From Reclinomonas americana ATCC 50394 (lineage: Eukaryota), in assembly GCA_048213135.1 (NCBI GenBank), contig PS015016.1:1-64000 (forward strand): a stretch of DNA of 64,000 nucleotides, given 5' to 3'. Position 1 is the stretch's first letter. The number at the start of each line of letters is the position of its first letter. Of the stretch, positions 27,053 to 46,033 are shown piece after piece. The notes under the pieces are model-generated. The model had not been told where the DNA came from, made no database searches, and was given only the letters and a program-made list of their open reading frames with translations. Both the position numbers and the translations under genes were made by a program.

Positions 27053-27479
27053 NNNNNNNNNNNNNNNNNNNNNNNNNNNNNNNNNNNNNNNNNNNNNNNN
27101 NNNNNNNNNNNNNNNNNNNNNNNNNNNNNNNNNNNNNNNNNNNNNNNNNNNNNNNNNNNNNNNNNNNNNNNNNNNNNNNNNNNNNNNNNNNNNNNNNNNN
27201 NNNNNNNNNNNNNNNNNNNNNNNNNNNNNNNNNNNNNNNNNNNNNNTGCACACTCACTCTCTCTCTCGTTTGCTCGAGTTTTGCCATCTCACTCTCTCAC
27301 AGGTGTACTATTCGTTCAAACACGCGGGCAACACGCTCGACGACCAGCAAGTACGCGAGGAGTGTGTCCGCGCCTACTGCAAAGCGGCCATGGACGACAT
27401 TCCGAATCCCACTGGCAGCACACCAACAACAACAACAACAACAGCGGCGACGACGCCAACGGATGACAAGGGCGGCTAA
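24514..27479 (+). CDS. PET127: Mitochondrial 5'-3' RNA-processing exonuclease Pet127
   Basis: Arg-rich presequence; VPQLAHSL, FTGSTSSVTGILSQLYF, LLRSQLDCYD, FDLKTRA and YEREFYDMVRSVFIKYCFQARIGRMHGIFVTYHNTDEIFGFEY are Pet127 signatures. Confidence 0.92.
26991..27052. repeat. (TG)n microsatellite abutting an assembly gap
   Basis: About 31 TG units in a PET127 intron. Confidence 0.9.
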
Positions 27480-28182: not shown

Positions 28183-28388
28183 CGGTGTGGTTGACGACGA
28201 TCGGAGAAACTGGCGGCAACGTGCAGAAATCACGCGTCGACACAGACTAAACAAACCCGCGGGAAGGCCCACCACAAAGAACAGCGCGCTGCTCACGAAC
28301 ACCACCACCACAGTGACGAGGTGAAGCACAACGCGAACTATTCTTGAAAGACACAAAGCGCGCGCGCGCGCGCGAGTGTATTTTTGTC

Positions 28389-28407
28389 AAAGGCAGGTGG
28401 GTCAACT
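28389..28407 (+). repeat. Left terminal inverted repeat AAAGGCAGGTGGGTCAACT
   Basis: Exact reverse complement of 40619-40637. Followed by GTAAGCCGACAG (28411-28422), whose inverse is at 40593-40604. Confidence 0.95.
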
Positions 28408-28907
28408 GATGTAAGCCGACAGCGCAAAATCCCGTCGATTGGCAGTCCAAACTGGATTTTGGAGACACATGGTGGTCACGGCGGCCGAGGTGGGGCGGGC
28501 CCAGTGAAGGTGCACGCGTGGACTGTATTGGCTCATTTCGTAGCCAATGAAACGAGCTACAAAGTGATGTCTGCGGATCTGCTCGGCGACCTTCCGTCGA
28601 GGAGAGCGGCGCGTCCAAAGTCAAAAGTGCCGATTTTTCGCCAGAAATCGACCTTTGTTGTCGTCGTGCCGACACCTTCCTCCGAGGCGCTGAGGTCACA
28701 CCGAGGGTCATCTGAAAGGCCTTTCGCTGGGCTATTGTGTAAATTCAGAAAAAACAACGCCACTATTTCCTGTCGTCCAGGAGGACTGAAACACATGCCG
28801 AGATCCACATTTCGCGCGCGCGCGAAACGTTGCCTCGGAAATAACAACTCTGTCTTTCTTTTGTGTCGCGAGAGGGGGCCAACAGGGTCTTGTGGGGGGC
28901 GCCGACC

Positions 28908-31900
28908 ATGGCCAGCGGCCATGATGTCGAGATGCATGACCTCGCGTCGCGATCGTGCCTCGTGTCTCCGCCAGCGCCCACTCGGCATTGGCGCCGGCAG
29001 TCTCCTGTCACCCCCACTGGGGCACAAGCCGCCGCAGCTGCAGCGCACGTTGCACGAGCAAGTGTGCATGCATCAAACGGCAGTGGCAGCGGTGTCGCGC
29101 AGCTGCAGGTGAGAACGTGCCTGACTGCCTCTCGACACTCGAGTTGTCTCTCTCACTGTTCCTTGACCACAGTTTGGCGCACACCCCTCCGCCTCAACCG
29201 CACGCGTTCTGGCGTCGTCGTCAGACCCCCAGTTCACCATGCCGGTGCCCAGTGATGCCATGTTGTGGTCCCCGATGTTGCCGACGCCTCCTCAATCAAT
29301 TCCGGTCAGTTTCCCGCTCGGAAGTCCGCCACAGCTGCCCCCTTCGCTCTACGGTCACCAGTGGACCCCTCCCGCGGTTGGCATGTCATCCGTGGTGCAG
29401 ACGTACGGTGGCGCTGCACCAAGCACCGTCACCATCAACTTCAGTGGCACGCCGGAAGGACAAGCCACGTACGACGTCGCCTCCCTCTCTCGCTTGCCTC
29501 ATGGTTTGGGCGCGGATGCCAGTGGCAGCTTGTTCCTGACGCCGACGTCACCGTTGTCGCCGCCGCCGCCGCCGCCGCCCGCTGCTGCTGCCGCGTCGCG
29601 CACATTCGTAAAACTGGTGCGCAACCCTGGACTGCTGGCCAAACTCGTGTGCTCCTTGGTCAAGGCCCCGTCGTCTGCGGAAGGAGTCGCCTGTGATGTG
29701 CGTGCGTGCGTGCGTGCATGTGTGTGAGAGAGAGAGAGAGAACGGTTGTGAGCTCATTGTCGTGCATTCTCCCTCCTCAGCCCGAGTTCACGCCGTTTGC
29801 GGCGAGAGTGCAGTCGTCGCTGTGCACGGACTTGTCAGCGACAGTGGTGGACATGCTGTGCGCGCATCAGCGTGACGGTGCACCTGCGCGGCAAGGTCGA
29901 GCCCGCGGAATGCCGACATCGCTCGCCGAGGCACTTGTCGAGAGGCTTGTCGGCACAGTGCAACAGATCCCCAGTTCCAGTGACGACGACGACGACGACG
30001 ACGGCCTACAGTTGCTAGCCGAGCGCCGATCGCTCACCGCTGTCCTCTTCATCAACCACTACCACATGAACTCGCGCCTGCGGTCGAGCGACGCCACCCC
30101 CCTCAATGCTCACGAGAAGGCGATCTGGACGCTTATCTGCTGGCGACTGGCAGATGCGCTGCAGGCTTCCAGGCGCAACAAGCGACGCGCACCAGCAAAT
30201 GAGCGTGATTATGCGGCCGAGATCGACGCCGATCATTCGCTGGTGTCCCAGATCGACGGCACAGGTCAGCTAGACAACATCATCACCAGCGCAATCACCA
30301 CCGTCCTCTCTGTCGACAAGAGTGATGGTGTGAGAAATGCTCTCGGTCGCGCCCTTCGGATCAACGCAGCCAGGTCGACCTCCAGTCAGTCAGGCGGCGC
30401 CATGCGATTCAGTCGTTCTGGCATTTTGTCACTGCTGGATGGCCTCAGCGAACCCGCCGTGGTGGTGCTCGATGCACTGTACAGTGTCATCGACGCAGCG
30501 CGTCTGGCCGACCGCGATGCCGTGGCCGTTGTTCCTCCGCCACCTTCAATGCCGCAGCCGTTCGCGTGGTCTCTGCAACGGTTGGAGGTCAGCACTACTG
30601 CGCGGTTGTTTCGCACTGAGCTTGCCGCGCAAGCGTTTGCGGCAGTGGTTGCCGATCCTCCTCCCGCTCCAGCCGGCCCGGTGCAACTTTCCAGTGAACA
30701 ATTGTTCATGTTGGGTCGGAACCATCACCGTCGCGAGTTCAATAGGCGCAACGCGGAGCATCTGCGCTCCACCACTCCTCGCAAGCTCGACCTCGACGCC
30801 CAGGATCCGGATGCGGCCGGGCAGGTGCAAGTGCGTGGCGATCTTCCGCTCCGACCTTTACACCAGGCACGGTTGCAGTTGCCTGCAGCAGACGCCGATG
30901 CCGGGTCGCGCGTCAATGGCGGGGAATACGACCTGAAGTTCAAGAGCGTTGAGCGTCCGCGGGCGGGTGCACCAAAGGCCGGATCTGGCCAGTGCGTGTG
31001 CCTCAAGTACTCCAGCGGCGCTGAAAAGGGCATTTACTGCGCCTCTTTGTGCGACTCCAAGGAGCAACCTGCGAAGATGCTGTCCACCGCGACTGCTTTC
31101 GACCGCAACAGGGGATGTTGTGTGGAGGTTGGCGCGCACGTGGGCAAGACTTGCCGCTCCTGCCGTGACAAGCATGACGAGCCGCATGGTAAGCTGGCAG
31201 CAGGTGCCGCTGTCGCCGTGACCAGTCGGAAGAAGGCGAATCGCGCACCTGGACGACCACGAGGTAATAAGCAGAGTCGAGTGCGGCCTGACCTGAAACC
31301 GAATCGGCGTCTGCGCAAGTCGCAGGTGAGTTGCTGTGACGACGTATTCTCCAAGTCGATGCAATCGCCCATACTGTGAACAACTTCTTTGTCTTAGAAA
31401 CTGAGCGACCAGTCTGCCGCACTGCCAGCTGTTGCAAGTGACGCTGTTCCGGAGGGGTTTGTGGTGGCCGATGAGGAGGAGGTGATTCCCCCCACACTGT
31501 GCCCATGTCGCACACCTGTGCTTGTATATCCTGATCAAACTGTCGTATATACGCAGCTGGCCATGGTCCAGCAGCCAGATCCCATGCGTCCATTGTACGA
31601 TCACCTCCACATCCTCGCTGACGGCGATGGGGGGGACGAGAGTGAGCGCGCCCAAGGTCAGCGGCCGGAAGAGATGCCTGCCGATGTCAGCGCCGTGTTG
31701 GACCAAGTGGCTGATAACGTCCGCAATGGTGACATGGACCGAATGCTGGACGACCCGATGAAGTTGCACTCGCTGGAGATGGAGGTACTTTTCAACGATT
31801 CTGACTCTCCGCTCACTGCTGCTTCCTCGCTCAACGAACTCGCTCGTGCTCTGCAGGGGGTCTCTCGCCCGTTGCACGCTGCTCGAGCGCTGCATAATGG

Positions 31901-34900
31901 CACTGAAGGGAACACATTTGAGGATCAGTGTGCTGGGTGTGGCGGAGGCGTGTTGCTTTGTGGAGCGCGGTCGTGCAATAGTGGCCTGGTGCTGAAGTGC
32001 TCGACTGATCGATTGTCGACCCCGTGCCTGTTCCGATGTGCGTGCCACCTCATCCGTCCCGACTCCGATGGCGTGCCAAAACTTCGACTGCCATCGCTCG
32101 GCAATGCCGATTGGTTTACCGTCGAACGTGTGTCGGACGAGACGCAGCGAAATGTGTTGCGTCCTGCCACTCAGTGTGCTTATGCCTCGCCCTCTTTCAC
32201 GTTCCGTGCACTGTGTGGCTCTCTCTCCCCCCTCAATTTCTCTCTCCCTTCGCCTCCCTCCTATTCCCACCCTTCCTGACACGAGTGTGCCTTTTTCCCA
32301 TTTCACAGACTCCCGTTTCTCTGCGAGTCGTGCATCCGATCGAGCGTCGAGCAGCAGGTCTTCGTCGGAGAAGCATTTGGCACAATTGCTTCGGTGGGTT
32401 CAGTGCGGTTCCACGCGGTGGTGAATCACGTCAATCGAGTCGCCCGCCTCTGTTCGTCGCACCACTGGGGCAAGCGTGTCTCGGACGCCGAACATGATGC
32501 AACAGCCGACCCGGAGCCCGGGACGTATTCGTGGAGTCTTGCGGTGAACGGCAAGACAAGTGCGTCTCCCTTCGACTCCAGTGGACGGTCGGTCGTGTCG
32601 GTCACTGCGTACGACGGCGTCACGTTCATCTTTTCTCGGGCAGACGTTACGGATCCGCCGTCGTCGGCACCGTCGCCTTCGGGGTCGGCCTCGGCTGATG
32701 ATGCGAGTGCGCTTGAAGGCGAAAGCATCCGTGATGCGCGACACACTATGGTGAGAGACAGCGAGGCACCCATGGTCACTTGCTTCCCTTTTCGCTCACT
32801 TCCCTCTTTGCGTCCATCATAGGTTGTCCTTGCCAGTAACAATTCCATTGCTGTCTTCGTCGGTGGTAAGCGGCTCAGCCTCGGATCCCTCATCCTCGAT
32901 GACTTCTGGCCTCAGATCTCCGAGTCCGGCCCAGCTGTGCACCAAGGGACTCATTCCTGGTATCCGGCGACGGAGCACCTAAAGTCGTCAGGTTCGTCGC
33001 ATTAATCTGCTTAAGCTTGTGTCACAGGGCCAGCTCTGCGTCTTCTCATGAGTATAGTCTCTCATCTGCACCAGGTGTCGATGATGCTGACGTACTTGCT
33101 GCGGTGTCGTGGGCGATGGCTGTGAAAGCCGGTAACCTTGATGATCGGATCCACAATCTGTCGACACTGCGCGGAGTGTTGGCCATTCTGACTGTCTGTC
33201 GGCCCTGCAGCGGCATCGACAACGAGGTGTCCTCTCGCACAGAGGAAATCTTGTCTCACCACACCGACAAGGTGACATTCGACTACCCGTTTCCGGCCTC
33301 CATCTTTCGCAGTTTTGTGAAACCCAGTTCCGCACCGCCGCTGTCACCGTCGTCGACCGTGTATCGCTCTCGTGGCTGTGCCAGCTTGGCGTTCGTGGTT
33401 GGTGGCGGTTCGTACTTTCCTCCCGGGATCCCGGCCCTTTGATCGCGCCCAGTGTCGGGCAGTGATTGTGACTCATTGGCTTGGGATTGCACAGGTTCGA
33501 ACAAGCCTGCGCGAAATATGTGCGCCGCTTGCAGGCGCGCATTGGGCGCATGTGACACAGAAGCATCACGAGCTCGAGGAGCAGCGCGGTCTGAAGCTGG
33601 CCGGGCGACGGTTGACGAAGCCGTCAAGTTATTGACCCGCCCTCAGCGTGCGTTTTCGTTGCTTTTAGTGCGCGTGTTGGCTTGCCGCGTGCAGGCGCCG
33701 TTGCTGACTGCCTCTTTGAACGTCAGCGGGCGTATCACAGCAGATGCAGATGGCTTTCGCACGTGCGGCGGTGGACTTACGCAACACTCGTACCTCGGAT
33801 ATTCACGGCACCAATAACGGACGACGCTTTGCTGACTCTTGTTACAAAGTGGCGATGGCAATGCGCATGACGAGTTGCGTTCCACTGGATGACTTCCGTT
33901 GCATTTACCTTCCATTGACCGACACCACTCCGTGCGCTACATGCAGTGACGAAGAAAGCGTACACGGCCCTCCGCTCAGTGGTCACTTGGATTCCGTCAG
34001 TCTCCTCGCTTCACCGGAGGCTGGCGGGTACGGAGTATCGCACGGAGGCAACCGGCCTCGTCCACAAGACAGTGCATGAATTTATGCAAGCCGTCAAGAG
34101 CGGGGAGGTTTCGCGGGTCGTTGCGATGACCTACGATGAGATGAGCCTCCAGCCAGGTGAGTGATATCAGGCGATGCGTATTTTTTGTTGCATTTCTCTG
34201 GCGTTCCAACACATGTTGCACATGATAGGCGTGCAAATCTCACTGCATGATGGCCGACTTCTCGGGTTCAAGACGGTTGCGCCACTCCACGAGCACCAAG
34301 AATCGGGTGCGGTGTAGTTAGTTGTTCTCCGTCCAATGCGTGCCATTGTCCTGTCCCCTCACACAAAACTCTTGTTGCTATGCAGAGGCCATCAAACGGC
34401 GCACATTGCTCACCGACGCTAACGAGCCCAGGGCGCATGCCAATGGTCCCACGCCTCCTCCCTCTGTGGTGTTGTCTGTGGACCAGGCCGCCGCATTGGA
34501 TGGCAGCGGCGAACAGGTGGCCGACGGTGACGACCGCGTGTCGTCGGCCGCTGAGTCGGTTGACATCAGCATGACATCGAAGCGTGGAGAGGTTGCCGTG
34601 GACAACGTGGCAAGCCATCTGTTTCGAGTCTACATCACGACTATCGATGGTCGATTCAGTGGTGCTGTGTATCATGCATTCACCAACGGCAAGTCTGACG
34701 CCGCCGAGATTGAGGCGATTGTGAGTAGAGCGAGAGACTTGCTTCGTGCGACGGTGCCATCAATTGTGGTGAGTGCATGTACTGCGTGTGTTTGTTGTGA
34801 CGTTTGTTGCTCCTGACATGCACCTCGTGCGTTCAGTTTGCCATGGAGATCAGTGATGCTGCCTCTGTGAACGCCAAGATTCGCCGGGGACTTGAGTGCG

Positions 34901-37900
34901 CCTGTTACCTGGAGACTGTTGACTGCATTCGATGCCGTTTCCACTTTGCTGTCGGAGAGCAGAGCGAGAGTCGGACGGCTGAAGTGGAAAAACTTTTGCA
35001 GCACCACTTTCACCACGACCACAAACTGAACGAAGCGGAGGTACGTGCACGCAGGTGGGTGGAAGTATCTTGTGCAGCTCACTTGCGTCGTCGTCACACA
35101 CAGGTCGAACAGCACCTTGCGGAATTCAGGGAAAAGGAAGCGATTCGACTGGCTGTTGGCAAACCGGATTCGTCGCTCGTTGATCACGCCCTGTTGGTGC
35201 ACGGTGTCAACAAGACCGCGTTACCGATGTTCAAGGCCATCCGTGCAGAGACCGACGTCGTCCACTTGATGAAGCGCATATTCAAGGTGCCTCACCCGAG
35301 TTCCATTGCCCCAGCTGCAGTCCGTTGCCGCTACTCTGCTGAACTCTCTCGTGAACAGGCGTTCATTCGTCATGGTGACTGCATGATGACGTATGGCCGG
35401 AGTCAGTTTGCGCCGCTCGTCAACGTTGACGTAAATTCGGTGGAGGAGAAGATGGTTTGTTCCATTGCTTGTCCAGTGCACGCCAGTGTTGGACTCGTGT
35501 CTAACGGGCGCTGCACGCAGGCCGTGGAGAGCATGATCGAGCCGCTTCGTCGCTTGGAAATTCTCTTGTCGCACAAGATGAACATTGCCCGCAAGCGTTC
35601 ATTGCGGGAATTGACACGCGACACGCTGCCATTCTGCGAGGTTTACGCTGTCCTTTGCGAATGGATTGCGCTGGTGCGAGGTCCAGCCGCAGGTGGGCAG
35701 GTGGCCGACGACGCTGACAGCGAAGGTGAGTTTTCAGTCCCGGAAAAAGTGGACCACATACTCACTCTCGTCTGCGCAGTTGCTGGATTGTCTTGGCAGC
35801 ACCGGTGCAAGTCTCGCATCGCAACTTTGATTGATGAACACGACTGCGTTATAAGAACAGAGCATCTGGCGGCACAGGGTGCGGCGCTGATGAAGACGTC
35901 TCTCGCCACGGACTATTTCTCCTTCAACACCGCTATTTATCTCATCAAGCAATCTGTAGCCAGCACTCCGCGTCAAGATGGCTGGTTCGAACACGTGGTG
36001 AGTGCCATCTCCCTCCTCTCCCTCCCTCCTCTCTCTCTCTCTCACACACACTCACTCCTGGCTGATCTCGTACCGGGGAAACTCAGCTTGACATCGTCAT
36101 GTTTGCCGTCTGGTACCGCTGCGTGACATTCTTCGCCGAGTTCGACATTCGCACCGAAGAGTCAAACGAGGCACTGCAGAGCCTGGCCTGCATCTTGGAA
36201 CTCGTCGTGAATCGGACGCGGATGATTGACGAGCACCGTGAGAAGTGCGCTTAGATTTGCATCGTGCAACCGACTCGTGTGCCCCGATTTGACTCGTCGT
36301 GCAGATACAAGGAGTTCCACCCAGACTCGGATCCTGTGTCGTTGGACAGCGGAGTCCTTTTCATCGGTCGTGACTTGACGGTGTGTGCGGCGTCGACGAT
36401 AAGTTTTCTCGTCGACCTTCGAAACCTTGCCGTCAATGAAGACCCGCTGGATGCGTCGTGCTCCGAGTCGCAACGCATGCGCGACTGCATGTTCATGGTT
36501 CGTTGGTGGTCGTCGGTGCTCCGCGCAAAATTCCACGTCTCACCGCCTTTCATGCAGGTGAACATTAATGCCATCTCGCAACAGTCCTTGGAGTCTTCGT
36601 TCAGTGGCACGCGTGCTGCTGTTGCCGGTGGCGCCCCAGGACCACGTGAGGCCGCGGCCATTGCGACTGGCCAGGCGCAGCGTGACGCCGCGCGCAACAT
36701 TGGTCTCCGGCCTCGTGATAATCGCCCAGAAGCCGCTGTGTACCGAGCCCAGCACACAGCAGATCAGCTGCGGGTGTTCACACACGGCGCACAGGTCGCC
36801 ATTGCTGAGCGCGAGCGTGCTCAGGGTGCCGACCTCCTGCAGCAGGCTGCCGGTCGGGAGGAGCCACGTATTGAGGATTTCCTCAGTCCTCCTGCTCCCG
36901 TGTGCCGGGCACGTGGTCCCGAGATAAGACCCACCGACAACGAGGCGTACGCTCGCGTGTGGGACATTCGTGAATGTGCGTGTCGCTTGTGCTGTTGCCG
37001 TCACGCTCGCTGAGATCGACTTCACCGTACTCACTTTGTAAATTTTTTGCTCTCCGCAGCGTACGTTCCACCAGACCCTGTGAATGTCGACCGCCTGCAG
37101 AGGTGGGCTTCGAACAGCAGCAAGCTCATCCCCTACCTGTATGACGACATCGTGTCGGAGGTGACCTTGGGCGTGTACGAGTCGTCGATCGTCGACCGCA
37201 TGAGTCGCCAGGTCAATCATGGTGGCTTGATGGTTCACCAGGATGTCGTTGCCGCGACTTATGATAGAATCGGCCACAACAGACAACTGCTTCCGCTCCT
37301 GCACCACCTGCGCTCTATGCGAGACCCCAAGAGCCCGCTGATTGGCATCGCTCTTGCGGTGAACGAGCTGCTACATCACAATGCGATACCGTACTGCTTT
37401 GTGGAGACGACCTTCTCCGATTTGCTCTCGCTGTTTTCGGATACCAGTGACGAATCGCATGCACAACTCTGGCTGCTGTGGCGACGGATGATTGTTGATG
37501 TGTATCCGGTTGCAATGGAGGTCGACCGTGGCGCTGCAGCAGCGGTATCGGTGCGTCTCCGCTTGATCCCCTGTCTGACTGCAGCTCGACAACCTGCAAT
37601 GTTGGCCACTCACTTACCCGTGTTGCAGGCCGAAGAGATTCTCAGCCAGTGGAAGATGGTGTTTCGTGAGTTTGTTCACAACCTCCTCTTTCGACTCTTG
37701 ACCAACCTCATTGCCGAGTGCGGGCTGTCGCCGAGGAGCAAGAAGCAGGCGCCTGTCCGTGCACTGTGGGCTCGAAAAATTTCCCGAGCTGCCCAGCCAG
37801 GTGAGACGAGTGTGCACTCAGTGGTGCGGCATTTTCTTTGTATGATTCTCATTCTGTCTTCTGGAATAGACGTCGCGATGGGCGATGACGGCGTGCCTGC

Positions 37901-40008
37901 GGAAGTGGTGAAGGCGCCAGTGACTGCCGCCGAGCGTCTCCAACACGTGGGCGCAGCAATCACATGTTTTAACTGTGATCGCAAGGGACACGACGCATAC
38001 GTCTGTGGTGCGCTCATCCGAGCAAAGAAATGCCATCGGTGTGGAGAACCTGGCCACTTCCAGGTAAACTGCCCGTTGATGTTCCGCGCAACGCGGCTGA
38101 ACATTGTGCGAGACCGGGAGGACGCTGGCTTGGCTGCGGATGGGGGGCCGCACAACGCCGATGCCGTCTTGGCAATGCGACCGGTGTGTGGCATCCACGT
38201 TTGCTGTGATGTTTTCTCCGTAACCCTCGTGAACCTCTCACTGTGGCTCGTTGCTCCGTAGTGCCCGTTCTTGAATGTGGACATGGAGAATCCGAAAAAG
38301 GGAAATCCCAAGCCATGCAAAAGTGAATACCGGATCGGATCGCGGGCGGTGTCCTCGTTGTCGAAACACATTGTCAACTGTCACATGGGTCACGCTGTGC
38401 GTTCGGGTCTTGTTGATGCCGCCGTGGCAGCGAAGTCATTTGAAGGTATGAATAGTTGCCTGTGCCTGCGACGGGTGCATGCATCACGCGACTCATTGAC
38501 AATCGATGGACAACAGAGCGCATAAATGCGGTGAGGGCAGCCCTTAAGCTTGTTGCCAAATACGAAGACCTGGTCGACATGGCGATACACATTCGGCCAA
38601 GTGTGGAGTACGAACCCAACCCTCTCGCTCTCTCGGCTCCATCTCGCGACAAGTGGGAACCCGAGTTTCTCAGAGCGTCGCTCCTCCCGGGTTCCTCGTG
38701 CCATCCCTCGCTGGCTGCTGATGAGGAACACGCTCGCACCGGTGCTCTTGTACAGGGGTCTGCAGAGTGGCACCAAGAGCGCATCGGCCGTGCCGATGTT
38801 CATCGGTTCACTGCCAGCCAAGTCGGTGCCATGGTGGGCATCATGGACGCGACGTGCTGCATTGTGAGTGGCGCGTTCCCGCGCCTCTACTTTTCGGTCT
38901 CCGTTGCAACAGCCGTGGCTGAGCACGTGGCACGTCTCCTCGCGATCGAGTACGGTGTGGAAATCGGTCGGCTGTTGCGTCTTTGTGTGCGTGTGGGAAA
39001 GGAACCAGAGTGGCGATTATTCCTCACATGTGTGCCGCCCTCTGTGCGCAGGGAGCCGAATGCGGCGATGCTGTGGGGTACCCATCACGAGGACTGCGCA
39101 CTTCTCACGTTCTGTCTGAATCACCCCCACGAGGTGGTGCTGAAGACGGGAGGGTATTTGCGAATCGCGCACTGCCCAGTGCAGGATGCACTCGGCGGGC
39201 AAGTTACTGTACCCGTTGAGGTGTTCGCCTCACCAGATGGTAGGTCATCTGGTTGCTTGTTCTTCGCATCATCACATCGCTATGTTGCTCATTGATTGGT
39301 GTCACGCCGCAGCAATGAGCGCCACTGAGAGTGCCGATGGGTATCACTACTTGCTGGAGGTCAAGTGTCCGTCACCATTCTCCGCCACCTCCTTCGCTCT
39401 GTCGAAACCGCCACGTCGCTTCGTTTCCGCCCAATACATGGTTCAAGTTCAGCTCCAGCTCTATGCGACAAACTTTCGCTTGTGAGTGTCGACGCGCGTC
39501 TGAGCCCGCGCGCGGTATCCACGATGCGGTACCGATTCAGCCAACTCATCAACCGTGTGCACAATGTAGGGCAAAGTTGCTGTCGTGGACGCCGAGTGGC
39601 ATGTTCGTCTTCGAGATCCCTCGCGATGACACACTCCTCGGGCTGCTGTTCCCGCTGCTGGGCCACATGGCTGGTGTCGTTCAGCGAGTATTCGAGTACA
39701 GTCGCGGTCGCGGCCACGGCTCACGCAGCACCGACGTCAAGTTCCCGGCCGAATGGGGCGACGATCCACATACCTGGCGACCTCTGCAGGCCACTACCGA
39801 GATCATGGAGAAGTTTGAGCGCTTTGTGTGCCGCCTCTCGCGTGCTTGTCGGAAGGCCGAGGAAACCTGCCGAGCCTACAAGGACGTGTACACTGGGCCG
39901 CTGGGCAGACTGTGGGTGCGTAACGCGGTTCCTATGGTGCCGCCGGTGCCTGCGGCGGACGTGGAGATGGCCGCGGCCGAGGCGGTCGGTCCCAACGGCG
40001 CGCAATGA
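28908..40008 (+). CDS. Transposon polyprotein: Cys-rich N-terminal region + P-element/THAP9-like DDE transposase + 2x CCHC knuckle + C2H2/BED-like finger + YqaJ (lambda-exonuclease) domain; ~20+ introns, ~3,100 aa
   Basis: KKAYTALRSVVTWIPSVSSLHRRL; YDEMSLQPG (D, 34135); ISDAASVN (D, 34855); TDVVHLMK (DxxH, 35254); SQQSLESSFSGTR (E, 36591); NHGGL; CFNCDRKGHDAYVC and CHRCGEPGHFQVNC; QGSAEW..R..TAS, WGTHHE, ASPD, LEVKCP and YMVQVQLQL. Phase-compatible GT-AG introns link all exons. Confidence 0.8.
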
Positions 40009-40618
40009 TCTTCCGATAATGTAATGCAAGAGCCTTCCTTTCCTCCACCAGCGAATGCTTTGCTGCTCCGTTTTCACGTGCAATGGTGGGAGAGAGAGTT
40101 TGGGTATGGTTCGCTCTTACTGGAATGGTCGCGAAGCTGCGAGGAGTCATGTCACGGTGGGTCGGCGACGATGCATGAAATGTGACGAATTCATGAGCAA
40201 AAAAATTGACGGATTTCTCGGTCGCTCTTGGTGTCACGCGCACAGCGCGACACCCACCGACTCACTCGCCGATGTCCTGAATTTACACACTACCTGAAGC
40301 GCTGCTCTACACGCTCATATGACGCACGTCGCCACAGACGAGGGCAGATGTGTCGGCACGACGCACACTTTGAGCGCTTCGATTTTTTCGCGCCGAAACT
40401 TGCAGGCTCTTGTCGTTTTTCTCGCGCCACGAGTAAGCACGGCAGTCGTGCCGAGGCTCAGCAGGTGCGCCCGTGAGTCGCGCGTCGAATGGCCTTAGTC
40501 AGGGCGCAAGGAGGTGCGTGGGTGACGAGAACGGGCAATTTCTGCGCGAGGGGGTGTCGATCTTTGACTCAGCCGATATTCGCGCCTCACTTCTGTCGGC
40601 TTACTGACAAATCGACGA

Positions 40619-40637
40619 AGTTGACCCACCTGCCTTT
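40619..40637 (-). repeat. Right terminal inverted repeat AGTTGACCCACCTGCCTTT
   Basis: Exact reverse complement of 28389-28407. Confidence 0.95.
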
Positions 40638-40693
40638 ATTTTTGTCACTCTTCTCTTTTTTTGTTTACACGTACGCGCGCGCAAGAAGTACAC

Positions 40694-43363
40694 ATGGCAT
40701 CGTTGGACGGGGCAGACTTTGATGTAGTGGTGCTGGGCACTGGACTGGTGGAGAGCGTGGTCGCTGGGTTCGTTCTCACACACGTGAGCTCTCACACACA
40801 CACGCACTCATGAGCTTACACAAACTCTGCTCCCTCATTCTCACACTTGCACACACAGCGCATGTGCACGCATTGGCAAGCAAGTGCTCCACCTGGACCG
40901 CACAGGCGCCTACGGAGCTGCGTGGGGATCACTGTGCTTCCAGGAGGTGCAGGAGTTTGTGCGCAACGGAGGCCAGTTGAGTGACACTGTTGGGGAGGGC
41001 GAGCGCGAGCGCGATGGACACGGTGCGCAGCTGCTGTTCTCGCAGTGTGGAGTGGTGCACTGCGATGAGGAGGACTTGCCGCGCTTGGAAGCAGTTGCGG
41101 TCTTCGTTCATTCATCCGCTTCTGGTGCTGCTTTCTCTCTCTAACTCGTTGGTGCGACGCACAGAGCAACCGCGGCTTCAACCTCGACTTGCCGGTGAAG
41201 CTCGTGCAGGCACGCACGGACCTCGTGGACGCCATGATCACGTCGGGCGTGTCGCGGTACATGGAGTTCTACGACCTGCGCAACTCGTACATGTTCCGAG
41301 GAGGGCGCTTTGTGCGAGTTGCGTGCCGAAGTGGTCGCTTGCCTCTCTACGTGTTCTCTCATGGGTGTGTGTTGGGGGGAACGATCAGGTGCCGAGCTCG
41401 CGTGGCGACGTGTTCCAGAGCAAGGACTTGGATCTGAAGCAGAAGCGCACGTTGATGAAGTTTATCAAGTCGTGTGTGGAAGACGAGGCTCTGGGTCAGC
41501 TGCCAGGTGCGCTGTTTCTGTGTGTGTGGAGTGGGCTGTGCGTCTGTCGTGCTCACTGCGCAAGACAGAGCACGAGAGTCTGGCTTTTGTGGACTTTTTG
41601 GAGCAGCAGGGTCTCGACGAGCAGTTGCGCGATTTCGTCTTGTACGCTATTGCGTCGCTGTACCACGGCCAGGATGATGGTATGTGCGCGCGCCCTGCTG
41701 CACTGCGTTTCGTGCAGCACATGCTGATTGTTATAAAAACGCACAGCATCGAGCCCCCATCGTTGCACACTGGCGGAGGGCGTGGAGCGGATACGCCGCT
41801 TCTCCACCTCGATTGGGCGTTTCTCCGAGTCGGCCTACATCTACCCGCTGTTTGGCATCAGTGAGATCAGCCAGGCGTTTTGCCGGTGAGCGCTTGTTGT
41901 GTTTCTTTTCTCCTGTGTGTGCATGCATGCTGACAGCAGTGCGTTGTGCAGCCTGTGTGCCGTGTTTGGTGGCATTTACGTTCTGCGGCGGTCGATTGTG
42001 CGATGCGAGGTGAATGCGGAGAATGTGGAGCATCCGCTGAGTGTCGCCATGACGGAGGGGGAGACGGTGCGCACGCGTCACTTGGTGGCGTCGCCAGAAT
42101 ACTTCCCCGAGAATGTCACCACCACCGAGTACGTGATACATGTGGTGTCGACTCGAGAGAATGCACACACACACTCACTCACTCCACCAAACAACAGGCA
42201 CCTCTCGCGCTGCATTGCCATTCTGTCGCATCCGCTCTTCCGACAGGAGCCACCTGCCGACGAGCACGTTAGCGAGACGGCACACTTGTCGATGAAGTAC
42301 CAGCTCGGATGCTTCTACGCGGTGCTGCCACCGCACACTTTTGGCAATGCGCACCCCATTCATGTGATTCAGGTGGACCACCACTTCAACACGGTGCCGA
42401 ATGGCTACTACGCCGTGCAGATGACGACTGTGAGCTCTGGCGACGCTCGTGCCGATCTCACTCCCGCGCTGGAGGCGCTGGTGGAGAATGCGCATGCGGA
42501 GTGGACTACGCACTATGCTGAGGAGCAGGCGGCCGCCGAGGCGGCTGCGGTTGCTGCGGCCGCTGATGCCGCCGAAGCCGCCGAGATTGCTGCTGCTGTT
42601 GCGGCTGCGGAGGCTGCAGAGGCTGCAGAGGAGGCTGCTGCCGCTGCGGCTGCTGCGGGCAGTGAAGAAGAGGGAGCGTCCAGTGATACTGCTGCTGTGG
42701 CCGCTGAATCCACAGTGGTGGCACAGGCGGTGGTCGCCGACGCCTTGTCGGCGGTGGAGGCGGCAGTAGCCTCGCCTGTAGCCGCGCCAGCAGAGCCAGT
42801 GCCGGCACCGATGCCCAAGGGTCCGCACATCATGTGGTCGGCGGTGTTCCAGCAGGCGATTCGAAAGGTTTTCTGTCGTGTTGCAGTCGTCCTCTTGTCA
42901 ACGTGTCGCTCAATCACTGTGGTTGATCGGTACAGGTGGATCCAACCGTGGAGCGCCATGCCAACATGCACATTACGGCGTCGCCGCAGGCCACACTCGA
43001 CTGCGACGATGTGATGCCACTCGCTCGTGCCATCTTTGACCGCATGTTCCCGGGCGAGGAGTTCTTGCCTCGTGTTCCCAACCCCGAGGACGAGGTGTGT
43101 GTCGCGTGCTTTGCCTCTCTTCATCCGTACTCCTTCTCACACCTTTACAGTGGGAGGCCGTGCCCGATGAGGAAGAGGAGCCGACGGCCGGCGAGGGCTC
43201 GGGTGTGGTGTCTGCCGAGCCGGTGGAGGGAGCAGCGGGCAGCACTGCGCCATCACAGCCCGACGATGCGGTTCCCGAGTCCGGGGCGGCGGCCGCGGAA
43301 CCGATTCCGACTGCTGAGCCGGTCGCCGATGCCGAGACACCGGTGGAGGCCACGGCTCCCTAA
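40694..43363 (+). CDS. Rab escort protein (REP/CHM/Mrs6; GDI superfamily)
   Basis: [95 protein letters not shown] and FPGEEFLPRVPNPED. Confidence 0.9.
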
Positions 43364-43542: not shown

Positions 43543-46033
43543 TTACACAAACTCCTCAATATCAATCTCGACCACCGACACTGGAGTCTCGATGCCAAAG
43601 TTCTTGAGGACCAGCGGGTGTACCACACCGACGTAGCCAATGGGGCGGCCATGATACAGCACGTGCGCCTGCTGACCAGGGAACAGGAACGGCTCTGTGT
43701 GCCGACAAGAACATGTGAGCGATAATTGACGAAATCACTCGAGCAAGTGCAGATTACGCCCGAACCAGCGGATTCTGCGAGACGGAAGCCATCGTCAGTG
43801 TGTGGCTCCCATTCCACACTCAACACTTGCATTGTGCGATCCAGCAAGCCGTGCACCGTCTGCGTATACACACACACACACGCAAAGCTGTCAGCTCATG
43901 AAACGCAACGATCATGAACAAACATATACACACCTCAAAGCTCGACGCCTTGGAGACGTAGGCTGCGGCGAGCTTGCGCACGTTGCGTGCGCCAACGTCA
44001 GCCGCCGCATCCTTGACCACGGCGTCCGACAGCTCGAAGAAGTGCAGCGGCAGCGGCTCGGTGCGGTTGTGTGCAATTGTTCTCAACAGCCCCGACAGCA
44101 GCGTCGTCCGCACAGTCTGGAACTCGGTGTTCTTCGGGTTGGCCACGGTAATGGCGAGTCCATCGTCTGGCCGCAGAAGCATCTCGTACAATTCGTCACG
44201 CGAGCACTGAGAGAGCACGCAGTGGCGGGGGCGGTGGCGGTGAGTGGCAAGAGAGAGAGAGGAAACGAGGGGGAGAACGAGTGGGACTCACCAATGCCAG
44301 CGTGAGTACTTCGGTGTAGCCTGCAAAGCCCATTTCTAGCCGCAGCAGGTCGCTGAGCTTGTTGAGTGGTTGTGGCTTGCCGGTGGTGGTGGTCTTGGGG
44401 TATGTGCGAGGCACGCGGTTGTAGCCGTACGCAATGCAAATGTCCTCCACCACGTCACATGCGTGCAACACATCGGGCCGTGTCGGTGGTGCCGACGTCC
44501 GAATGTACGTCGCATCGTCCGGGTCGACCTCCGACGGCAGCTGCATCCGTTGCAACAGCGCGCAGCACTCGGCCGCCGTGATGTCCGACACACCAATTGT
44601 GCGATGCACGTCTGCCAGGGCCACACGGAAGTGGCTCCACGAGAGGTCCGGATAGGAGCACGAACGGCCGTCGGGGTACACCACGGAGACGGGTTCAATG
44701 CTGCGCATGGGGGATCGATGGTGAGAAGGGAGAATGGGGAATAGAAGAAGAGGGGAGAGAGGCAAGAGGCGAACGCACTGGAACTTGTTGGCGCAATAGC
44801 ACGAGAAGCCGGCCACGATCATGTTGAGCGTGATAATGGCCTTGGTGAGATCGGTGGCGGTGGCCTCGATGAGCACGTTGCGAGTGCGCAGAGCGATGCG
44901 CGAGTGGTTGCCGTTGATGATCGGCGGCATGGAGAGGACCACACGATTGGCGTCGTAGATCACCGGGTACACTGGCGAGTCGCGGATAATGGGCAGGAAC
45001 TGTCGCAGCTTCAGATCCGACTCGTACATGACCATCATCTCGGCGGCTGCACGCATCGCAAGCGTCAGGAGAGGCACCCAGAAGGTGAGTAAAGTACGCA
45101 TGCCGCACCATTCATCTCCACAGTCTTGTTGAGCGGCACGAAGCGAATCTGGTCCGGCGGCAGCGCCTCGTACGTGAACGGTGCCTGGATGGTGTCCAAA
45201 TCGTGCGTGCCAATGGCCACGAGTGTGCGCCGGCGGCACAGGTTCTGATGCAGCTTGTCCTGGAACTCAATGAAGCGATTGTAGTTCTTCTCGTCAAAGG
45301 TCACATCCCGCAGCACGGCGCTGACAATGTGCGGACGGATGCGAGCCGTATCCGGGTGCACCGTGATCACAATCGGCTCTGCAGGCAGACACACACACGC
45401 ATGTCAGGCCTCTCACTTGTCGACGAATGAATGCACAACAAGCAGACCTCCACGAGGCGGATCAATCGTCAGCGCCGGCGGTGCACCGCGTCCTCGGAAC
45501 ACGCGCAACGCTGCTGCCAGACCCTCCAAGCACCTGCACATCATCACTCATCAGCTGTGCACACACACACACACCTCTCCTGGCACGCAACAGCAAGTCG
45601 TAGCGATTGGCCGGCACCTCAATCTTGTAAATGATCTCGTTGGAGGTCTCCGAGACACCGACCAGTGTGCTCGGGTCGCCCTCCACTCCGCGCTCCTTGC
45701 GCAACATGGTGGCCTCCGTGGTCTTTTGTCACAAGGAAATGTGAGTTGCTCAAGTACCTCCCCAATGTGCTCCCTTTCCTTACATCTCCCACGCACCACA
45801 TCGTCCAGCTCAATGCCGAACTCGAAGCACAGATCCTCGAACTGAGAGTCAGCTGTGTGCGCGAGACAGAGAAAGACAGGAACGAGTGTGCAAGTGTGAG
45901 TTGAGCATGACATGTCACTTCTCTCTCACACGCACGCACACACACTCTCGCGTGGCACGGGATGCATCACTCAACTGAACTCCTCGCCGAGAGCGGCCAT
46001 GAGGTCGGCCTTGGGAATGGCAACTACTGGCAT
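43543..46033 (-). CDS. FARSB: Phenylalanyl-tRNA synthetase beta subunit (cytosolic)
   Basis: [96 protein letters not shown] and GVVHPLVL. Confidence 0.96.

Follow-up and report, generated by a model that had tools for sequence, protein, structure and literature searches.

Background

Two groups of eukaryotic DNA transposons offer the closest points of comparison for the element described here, which lies in a 64,000-nucleotide stretch of contig PS015016.1 (positions 1 to 64,000, forward strand; hereafter the window) of Reclinomonas americana ATCC 50394 (assembly GCA_048213135.1). Transposases of the P superfamily carry the signature D, D, [C/D](2)H, E, with an insertion domain between the [C/D](2)H motif and the E (relevant part of PMC8230255). 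The target-site duplications (TSDs) given in the part of PMC3698922 that deals with them are 8 bp for P, 7 bp for 1360 and Galileo and 8-9 bp for the P element and the miniature inverted-repeat transposable element BuT5 of Drosophila buzzatii, the P element of this species itself having a 9-bp duplication. The second group, ISL2EU (PIF/Harbinger-ISL2EU-Spy, PHIS), is described in the pertinent portions of PMC4482050 as having an AT TSD, terminal inverted repeats (TIRs) that usually start with GG, an average length of about 4.8 kb and a Harbinger-type transposase with THAP or helix-turn-helix domains, and the function of its YqaJ is stated there to be not known. In literature searches on YqaJ and transposons, ISL2EU elements were the only eukaryotic DNA transposons tied to a YqaJ exonuclease domain.

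A sequence-only reading of the window had proposed a large, intact-looking TIR transposon, and this proposal is supported by the element ends, the TSD and the stop-free curated exons at 33741-40008. On a modest balance of probability, the locus is explained best as a recently inserted TIR transposon encoding an expanded, P/THAP9-like DDE (aspartate-aspartate-glutamate) core, two CCHC zinc knuckles, a YqaJ nuclease and, at the N-terminus, over 800 residues devoid of a recognisable domain. The evidence for this explanation, and the alternatives to it, are discussed below.

Element ends and insertion site

The terminal features are as follows.

28380-28388, no strand: left TSD copy ATTTTTGTC, read directly, identical to 40638-40646
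28389-28407, + strand: left TIR, 19 bp perfect, with an imperfect extension to about 28422
28662-28675, inverted at 40350-40363: subterminal island CGTCGTGCCGACAC, 273 and 274 bp from the ends (shared 9-mers, alignment)
28736-28748, inverted at 40277-40289: subterminal island TGTGTAAATTCAG, 347 and 348 bp from the ends (shared 9-mers, alignment)
40619-40637, - strand: right TIR, 19 bp perfect
40638-40646, no strand: right TSD copy ATTTTTGTC, read directly

The TIR, AAAGGCAGGTGGGTCAACT, stands at 28389-28407 and as its reverse complement at 40619-40637, with 19 of 19 positions complementary, as had been claimed. With up to three mismatches allowed, the 19-mer occurs at two sites only in the window, and at least two matches were obtained in none of 100 dinucleotide shuffles. 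The TSD, for which no length had been stated earlier, is 9 bp long, identical at all nine positions, and each copy abuts a TIR. Since perfect TIRs are bounded by a 9-bp TSD, the element is delimited to 28389-40637 (12,249 bp). Inverted repeats at both ends and an abutting duplication, the features by which Class II TIR transposons are recognised, are both present.

Inside the TIRs, GTAAGCCGACAG is common to both ends after an 11-bp indel (28411-28422 and 40593-40604, local alignment). The position of the subterminal islands suggests transposase-binding sites or the decayed remains of longer TIRs. The terminal 500 bp otherwise align poorly around the three shared inverted islands. The intact ends probably reflect a recent insertion, and the perfect TIRs, the perfect TSD and the open reading frames (ORFs) are together the features from which a recent or active element is read.

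An ordinary or domesticated host gene flanked by chance repeats was considered as an alternative. It would agree with the occurrence of a single copy (no second copy of the element was found in the 64-kb window) and with the codon usage, which is uniform over the element and resembles that of host genes in a codon model trained solely on the core exons that bear domains or motifs (scores in bits per codon; two host genes score +0.082 and +0.145). However, the 19-bp TIR is abutted by a 9-bp direct repeat, the chance of meeting a given 9-mer again at a fixed position is about 4e-6, none of the 100 shuffles reproduced the pair of TIR matches, the subterminal islands are inverted at equal offsets, and the site, which precedes a host start codon by 47 bp, is insertion-like. 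This explanation is therefore regarded as very improbable.

The YqaJ nuclease and the zinc knuckles

The 3' part of the element contains the features that are best supported by profile searches.

37060-38183, + strand: uninterrupted exon of 374 codons with the GGL motif and two CCHC knuckles (Pfam, PDB phmmer)
37965-38006, + strand: CCHC knuckle 1, CX2CX4HX4C
38031-38072, + strand: CCHC knuckle 2, CX2CX4HX4C
38184-38516, + strand: linker, comprising intron 38184-38261 (78 nt), exon 38262-38445 and intron 38446-38516 (71 nt)
38517-40008, + strand: YqaJ/lambda-exonuclease-like PD-(D/E)XK domain in 4 exons, stop codon TGA at 40006-40008
38756-38788, + strand: GSAEWHQERIG, followed by FTASQ, read from the sequence
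39236-39238, + strand: D of SPD, read from the sequence
39357-39359, + strand: E of LLEVKCP, read from the sequence
39363-39365, + strand: K of LLEVKCP, read from the sequence
39444-39461, + strand: QVQLQL, read from the sequence

The YqaJ exonuclease domain claimed by the sequence-only reading is present, on the strength of a Pfam match above the cutoff and the D...ExK residues. The Pfam YqaJ profile (PF09588) matches the 55-aa exon 39315-39479 with an E-value of 2.5e-5 and 25.1 bits (cutoff 22), the match covering profile positions 101-149 of 150, which is the C-terminal third, with the remainder of the domain on other exons. The ORF 39144-39485 matches the same family with an E-value of 5.4e-5 and 24 bits, and the NCBIfam lambda-exonuclease model TIGR03033 gave an E-value of 0.002, below its cutoff. 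GSAEWHQERIG...FTASQ is taken by us to be the N-terminal motif of the YqaJ family, and the D at 39236, the E at 39357 and the K at 39363 are presumably the catalytic positions; as the D...ExK residues are in place, the PD-(D/E)XK site looks intact.

Where a zinc knuckle had been claimed, two tandem CCHC knuckles with profile support were found: the exon that carries them matches zf-CCHC (PF00098) with an E-value of 8.4e-7 and 29.2 bits (cutoff 20.8), and both knuckles align with retroviral nucleocapsids in the PDB phmmer search, the best being 2ec7_A with an E-value of 2.2e-5. The linker exon 38262-38445 is rich in Cys and His by eye (C...C...H....CH...H), gave no Pfam match at E-values up to 10, and possibly forms another zinc-binding module.

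The transposase-like core

The region upstream of the knuckles is assigned as a putative transposase core from the following features.

33741-37059, + strand: putative DDE (RNase H-like) core, 8 exons, hand-curated, GT-AG introns of 60-89 nt, stop-free; identity by motif layout only
33955, + strand: KAY..LR...PS..L motif (KKAYTALRSVVTWIPSVSSL), upstream of D1
34135-34137, + strand: D1 in VVAMTYDEMSL (YDEMS), codon read
34855-34857, + strand: D2 in FAMEISDAASVN (ISDAASVN), codon read
35254-35265, + strand: DVVHLMK, read from the sequence
36591-36593, + strand: E in AISQQSLESSF (SQQSLESSF), codon read
37221-37229, + strand: GGL motif (HGGL), downstream of the E, in the 374-codon exon

The D, D and E codons claimed at 34135, 34855 and 36591 stand in the contexts that had been given for them, and a D, a second D, a [C/D](2)H-type motif, an insertion and an E are all present in this order in the core, which likely works like a P-type DDE transposase. 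The motif order had also been presented as the signature of P-element/THAP9 transposases; this part of the claim is not backed by any profile or sequence search, so that membership of the P superfamily is unproven and the core is described here as P-like in layout only.

Several results weigh against the preferred explanation. The layout resembles that of P/THAP9 transposases, a likeness that is no test of kinship. The motif spacings of the core (D1-D2 167, D2-DxxH 133 and DxxH-E 376 residues) are 2-3 times those of P/THAP9, for which 73/36/192 in the Drosophila P transposase and 70/40/199 in human THAP9 are given in the corresponding part of PMC8230255. Pfam scans of 41 ORF or exon pieces of the element, several of them overlapping and with E-value limits from 0.1 to 10, returned no transposase family at the exon level, nor did NCBIfam on 10 pieces. 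PDB sequence searches with phmmer found no transposase in any of six queries, the structure 6P5A (cited in the part of PMC8230255 concerned) being one that should be in the library. The central 441-aa exon had no phmmer match among 1.84e9 representative proteins, and two of two queries of a protein atlas gave no usable match. A single-sequence AlphaFold model of exon 34837-35997 had a mean predicted local distance difference test score (pLDDT) of 35.4 and was unusable, an RNase H fold being expected to span 7 exons. The THAP domain was sought on the + strand ORF pieces of 28348-34164 with no match, and no other DNA-binding domain was found. Finally, within the YqaJ region the strongest donor (GTGAGT, 38864) and the strongest acceptor (pyrimidine-rich, ...GCGCAG, ending at 39051) are mutually out of frame; to keep the YqaJ domain in frame, splicing would have to use a weak AAG acceptor at 39001 or include a 26-nt micro-exon, or else the intron would have to be retained. 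No stop interrupts the 279-aa ORF in 38864-39051, and the frame clash could stem from a 1-nt lesion as well as from a micro-exon or from retention of the intron.

The splitting of the core by introns weakens exon-level profile searches, and core exons of 69-139 aa gave no Pfam match. However, a YqaJ exon of only 55 aa passes the Pfam threshold; exon size alone is thus not the cause of the silence of the transposase families, and the divergence is real.

These results also bear on a tentative alternative, namely that the same mobile element carries a non-P transposase of another DDE group with an insertion domain (Mutator-, hAT- or Zisupton-like, with TSDs of 8-9 bp) or of an undescribed superfamily, the P-like motifs then being generic features of RNase H-fold transposases. 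All P profile and sequence tests were negative, the spacings exceed those of P/THAP9 by 2-3 times, the searches revealed no THAP domain, Pfam detected the 55-aa YqaJ exon but none of the 69-139-aa core exons, and a 9-bp TSD is the classic Mutator length, all of which would favour this alternative. It is countered by the failure of the Pfam models for hAT, MULE, KDZ and Harbinger-type transposases to match either, by the runs KAY..LR...PS..L, DEM and DxxHLMK, which are more P/THAP9-like than hAT- or MULE-like, and by the occurrence of 9-bp TSDs in P elements. It is accordingly judged somewhat unlikely.

The motifs could also be coincidental, in a non-autonomous or cargo-laden element that is moved in trans and whose ORFs are captured or unrelated. 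No tool detected a transposase family, more than 800 residues are devoid of a recognisable domain, and captured sequence is common in giant cut-and-paste elements (as noted in part of PMC6431247). Such a coincidence is improbable in view of the seven collinear, same-strand motifs, whose order and secondary-structure context are those expected of an RNase H transposase, and of the uniform codon usage; moreover, no homologues of any kind were found for the pieces, so that nothing points to the capture of a host gene.

Coding capacity and exon structure

Under the preferred explanation of a P/THAP9-like TIR transposon, the transposase-like core, knuckles and YqaJ domain would belong to a long, intron-rich coding region that includes the following features in its 5' part.

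28908-28910, + strand: proposed start codon ATG, chosen by three of four free-start ab initio models and a forced start in another run
29845-32175, + strand: N-terminal coding block of two long exons (560- and 293-aa ORFs) with a 72-nt GT-AG intron at 31326-31397
32176-33740, + strand: link stretch between the N-terminal block and the core, on which ab initio models disagree, with codon scores of its ORF pieces near or below zero

The + strand ORFs of the element comprise 560, 441, 415, 293 and 279 aa. A splicing by hand that avoids all stops had been claimed for the gene, and this was examined over 11.1 kb on both strands and in 10 shuffles, introns being allowed GT-AG borders and lengths of 45-250 nt. 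The + strand does have a stop-free GT-AG path, but so do the minus strand and every one of the 10 shuffles; the fewest introns needed are 12 for the + strand, 21 for the minus strand and 24-29 for the shuffles. Hence it is not the existence of a path that speaks for a gene but the low intron number of the + strand.

The curated part, 33741-40008, consists of 14 exons chosen by eye and 13 GT-AG introns of 60-138 nt, typically of the form GTGAGT...YAG, and is stop-free over 1,744 aa. For the whole gene, a span from ATG 28908 to TGA 40006-40008 and a product of about 3,100 aa had been claimed. Both codons are present, but the ab initio models give 2,311, 2,553, 2,459, 2,386, 2,880 and 2,452 aa, the last of these (intron penalty 20) terminating at 38261 and not at 40008. 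The models were built with a purpose-written dynamic programme that is unstable upstream of 33741 and over-splits with its small trained matrix, and they are used as a range only. A protein of about 2,300-3,100 aa is thus predicted, and about 3,100 aa is possible.

In the N-terminal block, exons 29845-31325 and 31398-32175 score +0.075 and +0.089 bits/codon in frame and negatively in the other frames; these scores indicate that the block is coding, on the + strand and with host-like codon usage. The stretch 28908-29108 and the pieces of 28908-29700 score about zero. The block, of more than 800 aa, contains no domain recognised by Pfam or NCBIfam. By eye, two stretches in it are rich in Cys, 31900-32030 (CAGCGGG...C...C...C) and 31080-31240 (C.C...C...C...CC...C..C..H); neither has profile support, and they could be zinc fingers acting as the missing DNA-binding domain.

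The minus strand of the element shows no signal of a gene, as no Pfam family was found on any of six ORFs there. An antisense ORF of 513 aa (30858-32399, minus strand), which overlaps the N-terminal block and has a codon score of -0.055 and 0 Pfam matches, is probably a by-product of codon bias on the sense strand.

One protein or several

The knuckles and the GGL motif lie on one uninterrupted exon, and their linkage therefore needs no splicing. The joining of the YqaJ domain to the upstream protein depends on introns 38184-38261 and 38446-38516: retention of the first would bring the frame to a stop at 38259-38261, with an in-frame ATG downstream at 38283. A fusion of YqaJ to the upstream transposase-like protein is considered reasonably probable.

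The alternative of two or more genes, with a transposase ending at 38261, a separate YqaJ protein starting at ATG 38283 and the N-terminal block perhaps as a third, is a serious possibility, yet one that falls short of even. The stop at 38259-38261 in the absence of splicing and the in-frame ATG after it are what this alternative predicts, one ab initio model (intron penalty 20) does end at 38261, no convincing exon chain was found in 32176-33740, and in ISL2EU the YqaJ domain is on a separate ORF (relevant parts of PMC4482050, PMC4122938 and PMC9179366). On the other hand, introns 38184-38261 and 38446-38516 keep the frame and resemble the 11 other curated introns in length and in their GT...YAG borders. 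The gap between stop and ATG is, moreover, only 22 nt, which leaves no space for a promoter.

Flanking genes and search for related copies

Two host genes were identified to the right of the element.

40694-43014, + strand: GDI/Rab-escort protein (REP)-like host gene (Pfam GDI, E-value 5e-8, in its downstream part; RAE1/2 domain, E-value 3.3e-5; N-terminus by eye)
44196-45266, - strand: host gene for phenylalanyl-tRNA synthetase beta (B5 domain, E-value 4.6e-15)

The ATG at 40694, which stands 47 bp past the right TSD, opens the GDI/REP-like gene. The window contains seven runs of N (20-364 bases, between 10975 and 60556), the nearest at 27053-27246 and none inside the element. The longest inverted pair of the element is formed by microsatellites in putative introns, (GTGC)n/(GT)n/(GA)n at 29697-29745 and (CT)n/(CA)n at 36009-36055. 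Scans of the element for Rfam families, tRNAs and tandem repeats found nothing relevant.

Searches of protein collections for relatives of the 441-aa exon (longer proteins) and of the YqaJ ORF (longer, near) yielded none. A pattern scan of metagenome proteins gave 68 matches and one of viral contigs 12, and none of either set was confirmed. Two metagenome contigs, L001 and L002, contain the TIR 19-mer; they have nothing further in common with the element and a G+C content of 46-50%, and were rejected as chance or unrelated occurrences. L001 (358-378) and L002 (1320-1340) have a common 21-mer, that is, the 19-mer with one base on each side, which probably represents a coding segment conserved among bacteria and unrelated to the element.

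Proposed mechanism and significance

The organisation described above suggests how such a P/THAP9-like element could move. The element would have been inserted through a 9-bp staggered cut of the target, upstream of the GDI/REP-like gene. Its DDE core would bind the TIRs and the subterminal islands and carry out cut-and-paste excision and insertion. The YqaJ domain, as a 5'-3' exonuclease, could then resect double-strand ends, and the nucleocapsid-like knuckles could bind, anneal or chaperone the single strands. Resection together with the knuckles would steer the donor gap towards homology-directed repair, by which the element would be restored there and a copy gained. Alternatively, the nuclease might process the excised ends. 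No annealing partner of the RecT/Redbeta type was found in the element, and two CCHC knuckles stand upstream of YqaJ. The boldest form of this proposal, an undescribed lineage at the superfamily level in which an expanded DDE transposase is fused, in about 3,000 aa, to YqaJ and to knuckles that replace an annealing protein, and which directs the repair of its own donor gap with a gain of a copy per jump, is unlikely on present evidence but not far-fetched.

If the mechanism is true, the element would be a eukaryotic DNA transposon with end-resection and single-strand handling of its own, by which repair of the excision gap would be biased in favour of the element being copied back. The fused form of YqaJ would offer a direct handle on the function of the nuclease, the role of the ISL2EU YqaJ being called unknown in the literature. 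The element would also show how far a transposase can drift; as its central 441-aa exon has no match among 1.84e9 proteins, repeat annotation by homology would miss elements of this kind. In addition, with an intact copy lying 47 bp upstream of a housekeeping gene, the element may still be active and may affect the expression of that gene.

Comparison with known systems

Several described groups were considered as a home for the element. Kolobok elements duplicate TTAA, and this group is excluded by the 9-bp duplication found here. Mutator/MULE elements make duplications of 9-11 bp, of which 9 bp is the classic length; the TSD fits this group, but no MULE, SWIM or FAR1 profile matched in Pfam. 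With ISL2EU, the presence of YqaJ is the sole shared trait. The element differs from ISL2EU in its 9-bp TSD, in its TIR, which starts with AAAGG, and in its YqaJ, which is apparently spliced onto the upstream ORF; no Harbinger-type domain was detected in the element by Pfam. Membership of ISL2EU is excluded by the length of the duplication (AT versus 9 bp), by the TIR start and by this lack of a Harbinger-type domain.

The accessory modules resemble proteins of phages and retroviruses. Like phage YqaJ, lambda Exo and RecE, the nuclease has a matching ExK and QxQ region, the D...ExK residues and a weak lambda-exonuclease match; unlike them, it is split by spliceosomal introns and is C-terminal in a eukaryotic transposon protein, and a tblastn search of 50,697 phage records gave no match. 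As in retroviral nucleocapsid/Gag proteins, there are two CX2CX4HX4C knuckles, 24 residues apart (Cys to Cys), that align to those of HIV and SIV, but here they are within the ORF of a DNA transposon, and no Gag, protease, reverse transcriptase or integrase was found in the element by Pfam.

Cut-and-paste elements larger than about 7-10 kb are uncommon. Enlarged En/Spm elements of 16-20 kb have been reported, however (in part of PMC6431247). The present element is best described as a TIR transposon of an uncatalogued lineage, as compared with Pfam, NCBIfam, PDB and the literature, a catalogued relative in Repbase or Dfam being possible. Its transposase-like protein is an orphan of greatly enlarged size, and the combination of knuckles and exonuclease is unusual.

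From P and THAP9 it is set apart by the absence of detectable sequence or profile similarity, by the lack of a THAP domain among the pieces searched and by motif spacings 2-3 times larger; by its size, 12.2 kb against 2.9 kb, with a predicted protein of more than 2,300 aa against 751-903 aa; and by the addition of CCHC knuckles and YqaJ and a 19-bp TIR beginning with AAAGG. Nevertheless, the traits that it shares with P and THAP9 are several, namely TIRs accompanied by a TSD that, at 9 bp, lies within the 7-9 bp of the P superfamily, a multi-exon gene, and the layout D, D, [C/D](2)H, E with a large insertion.

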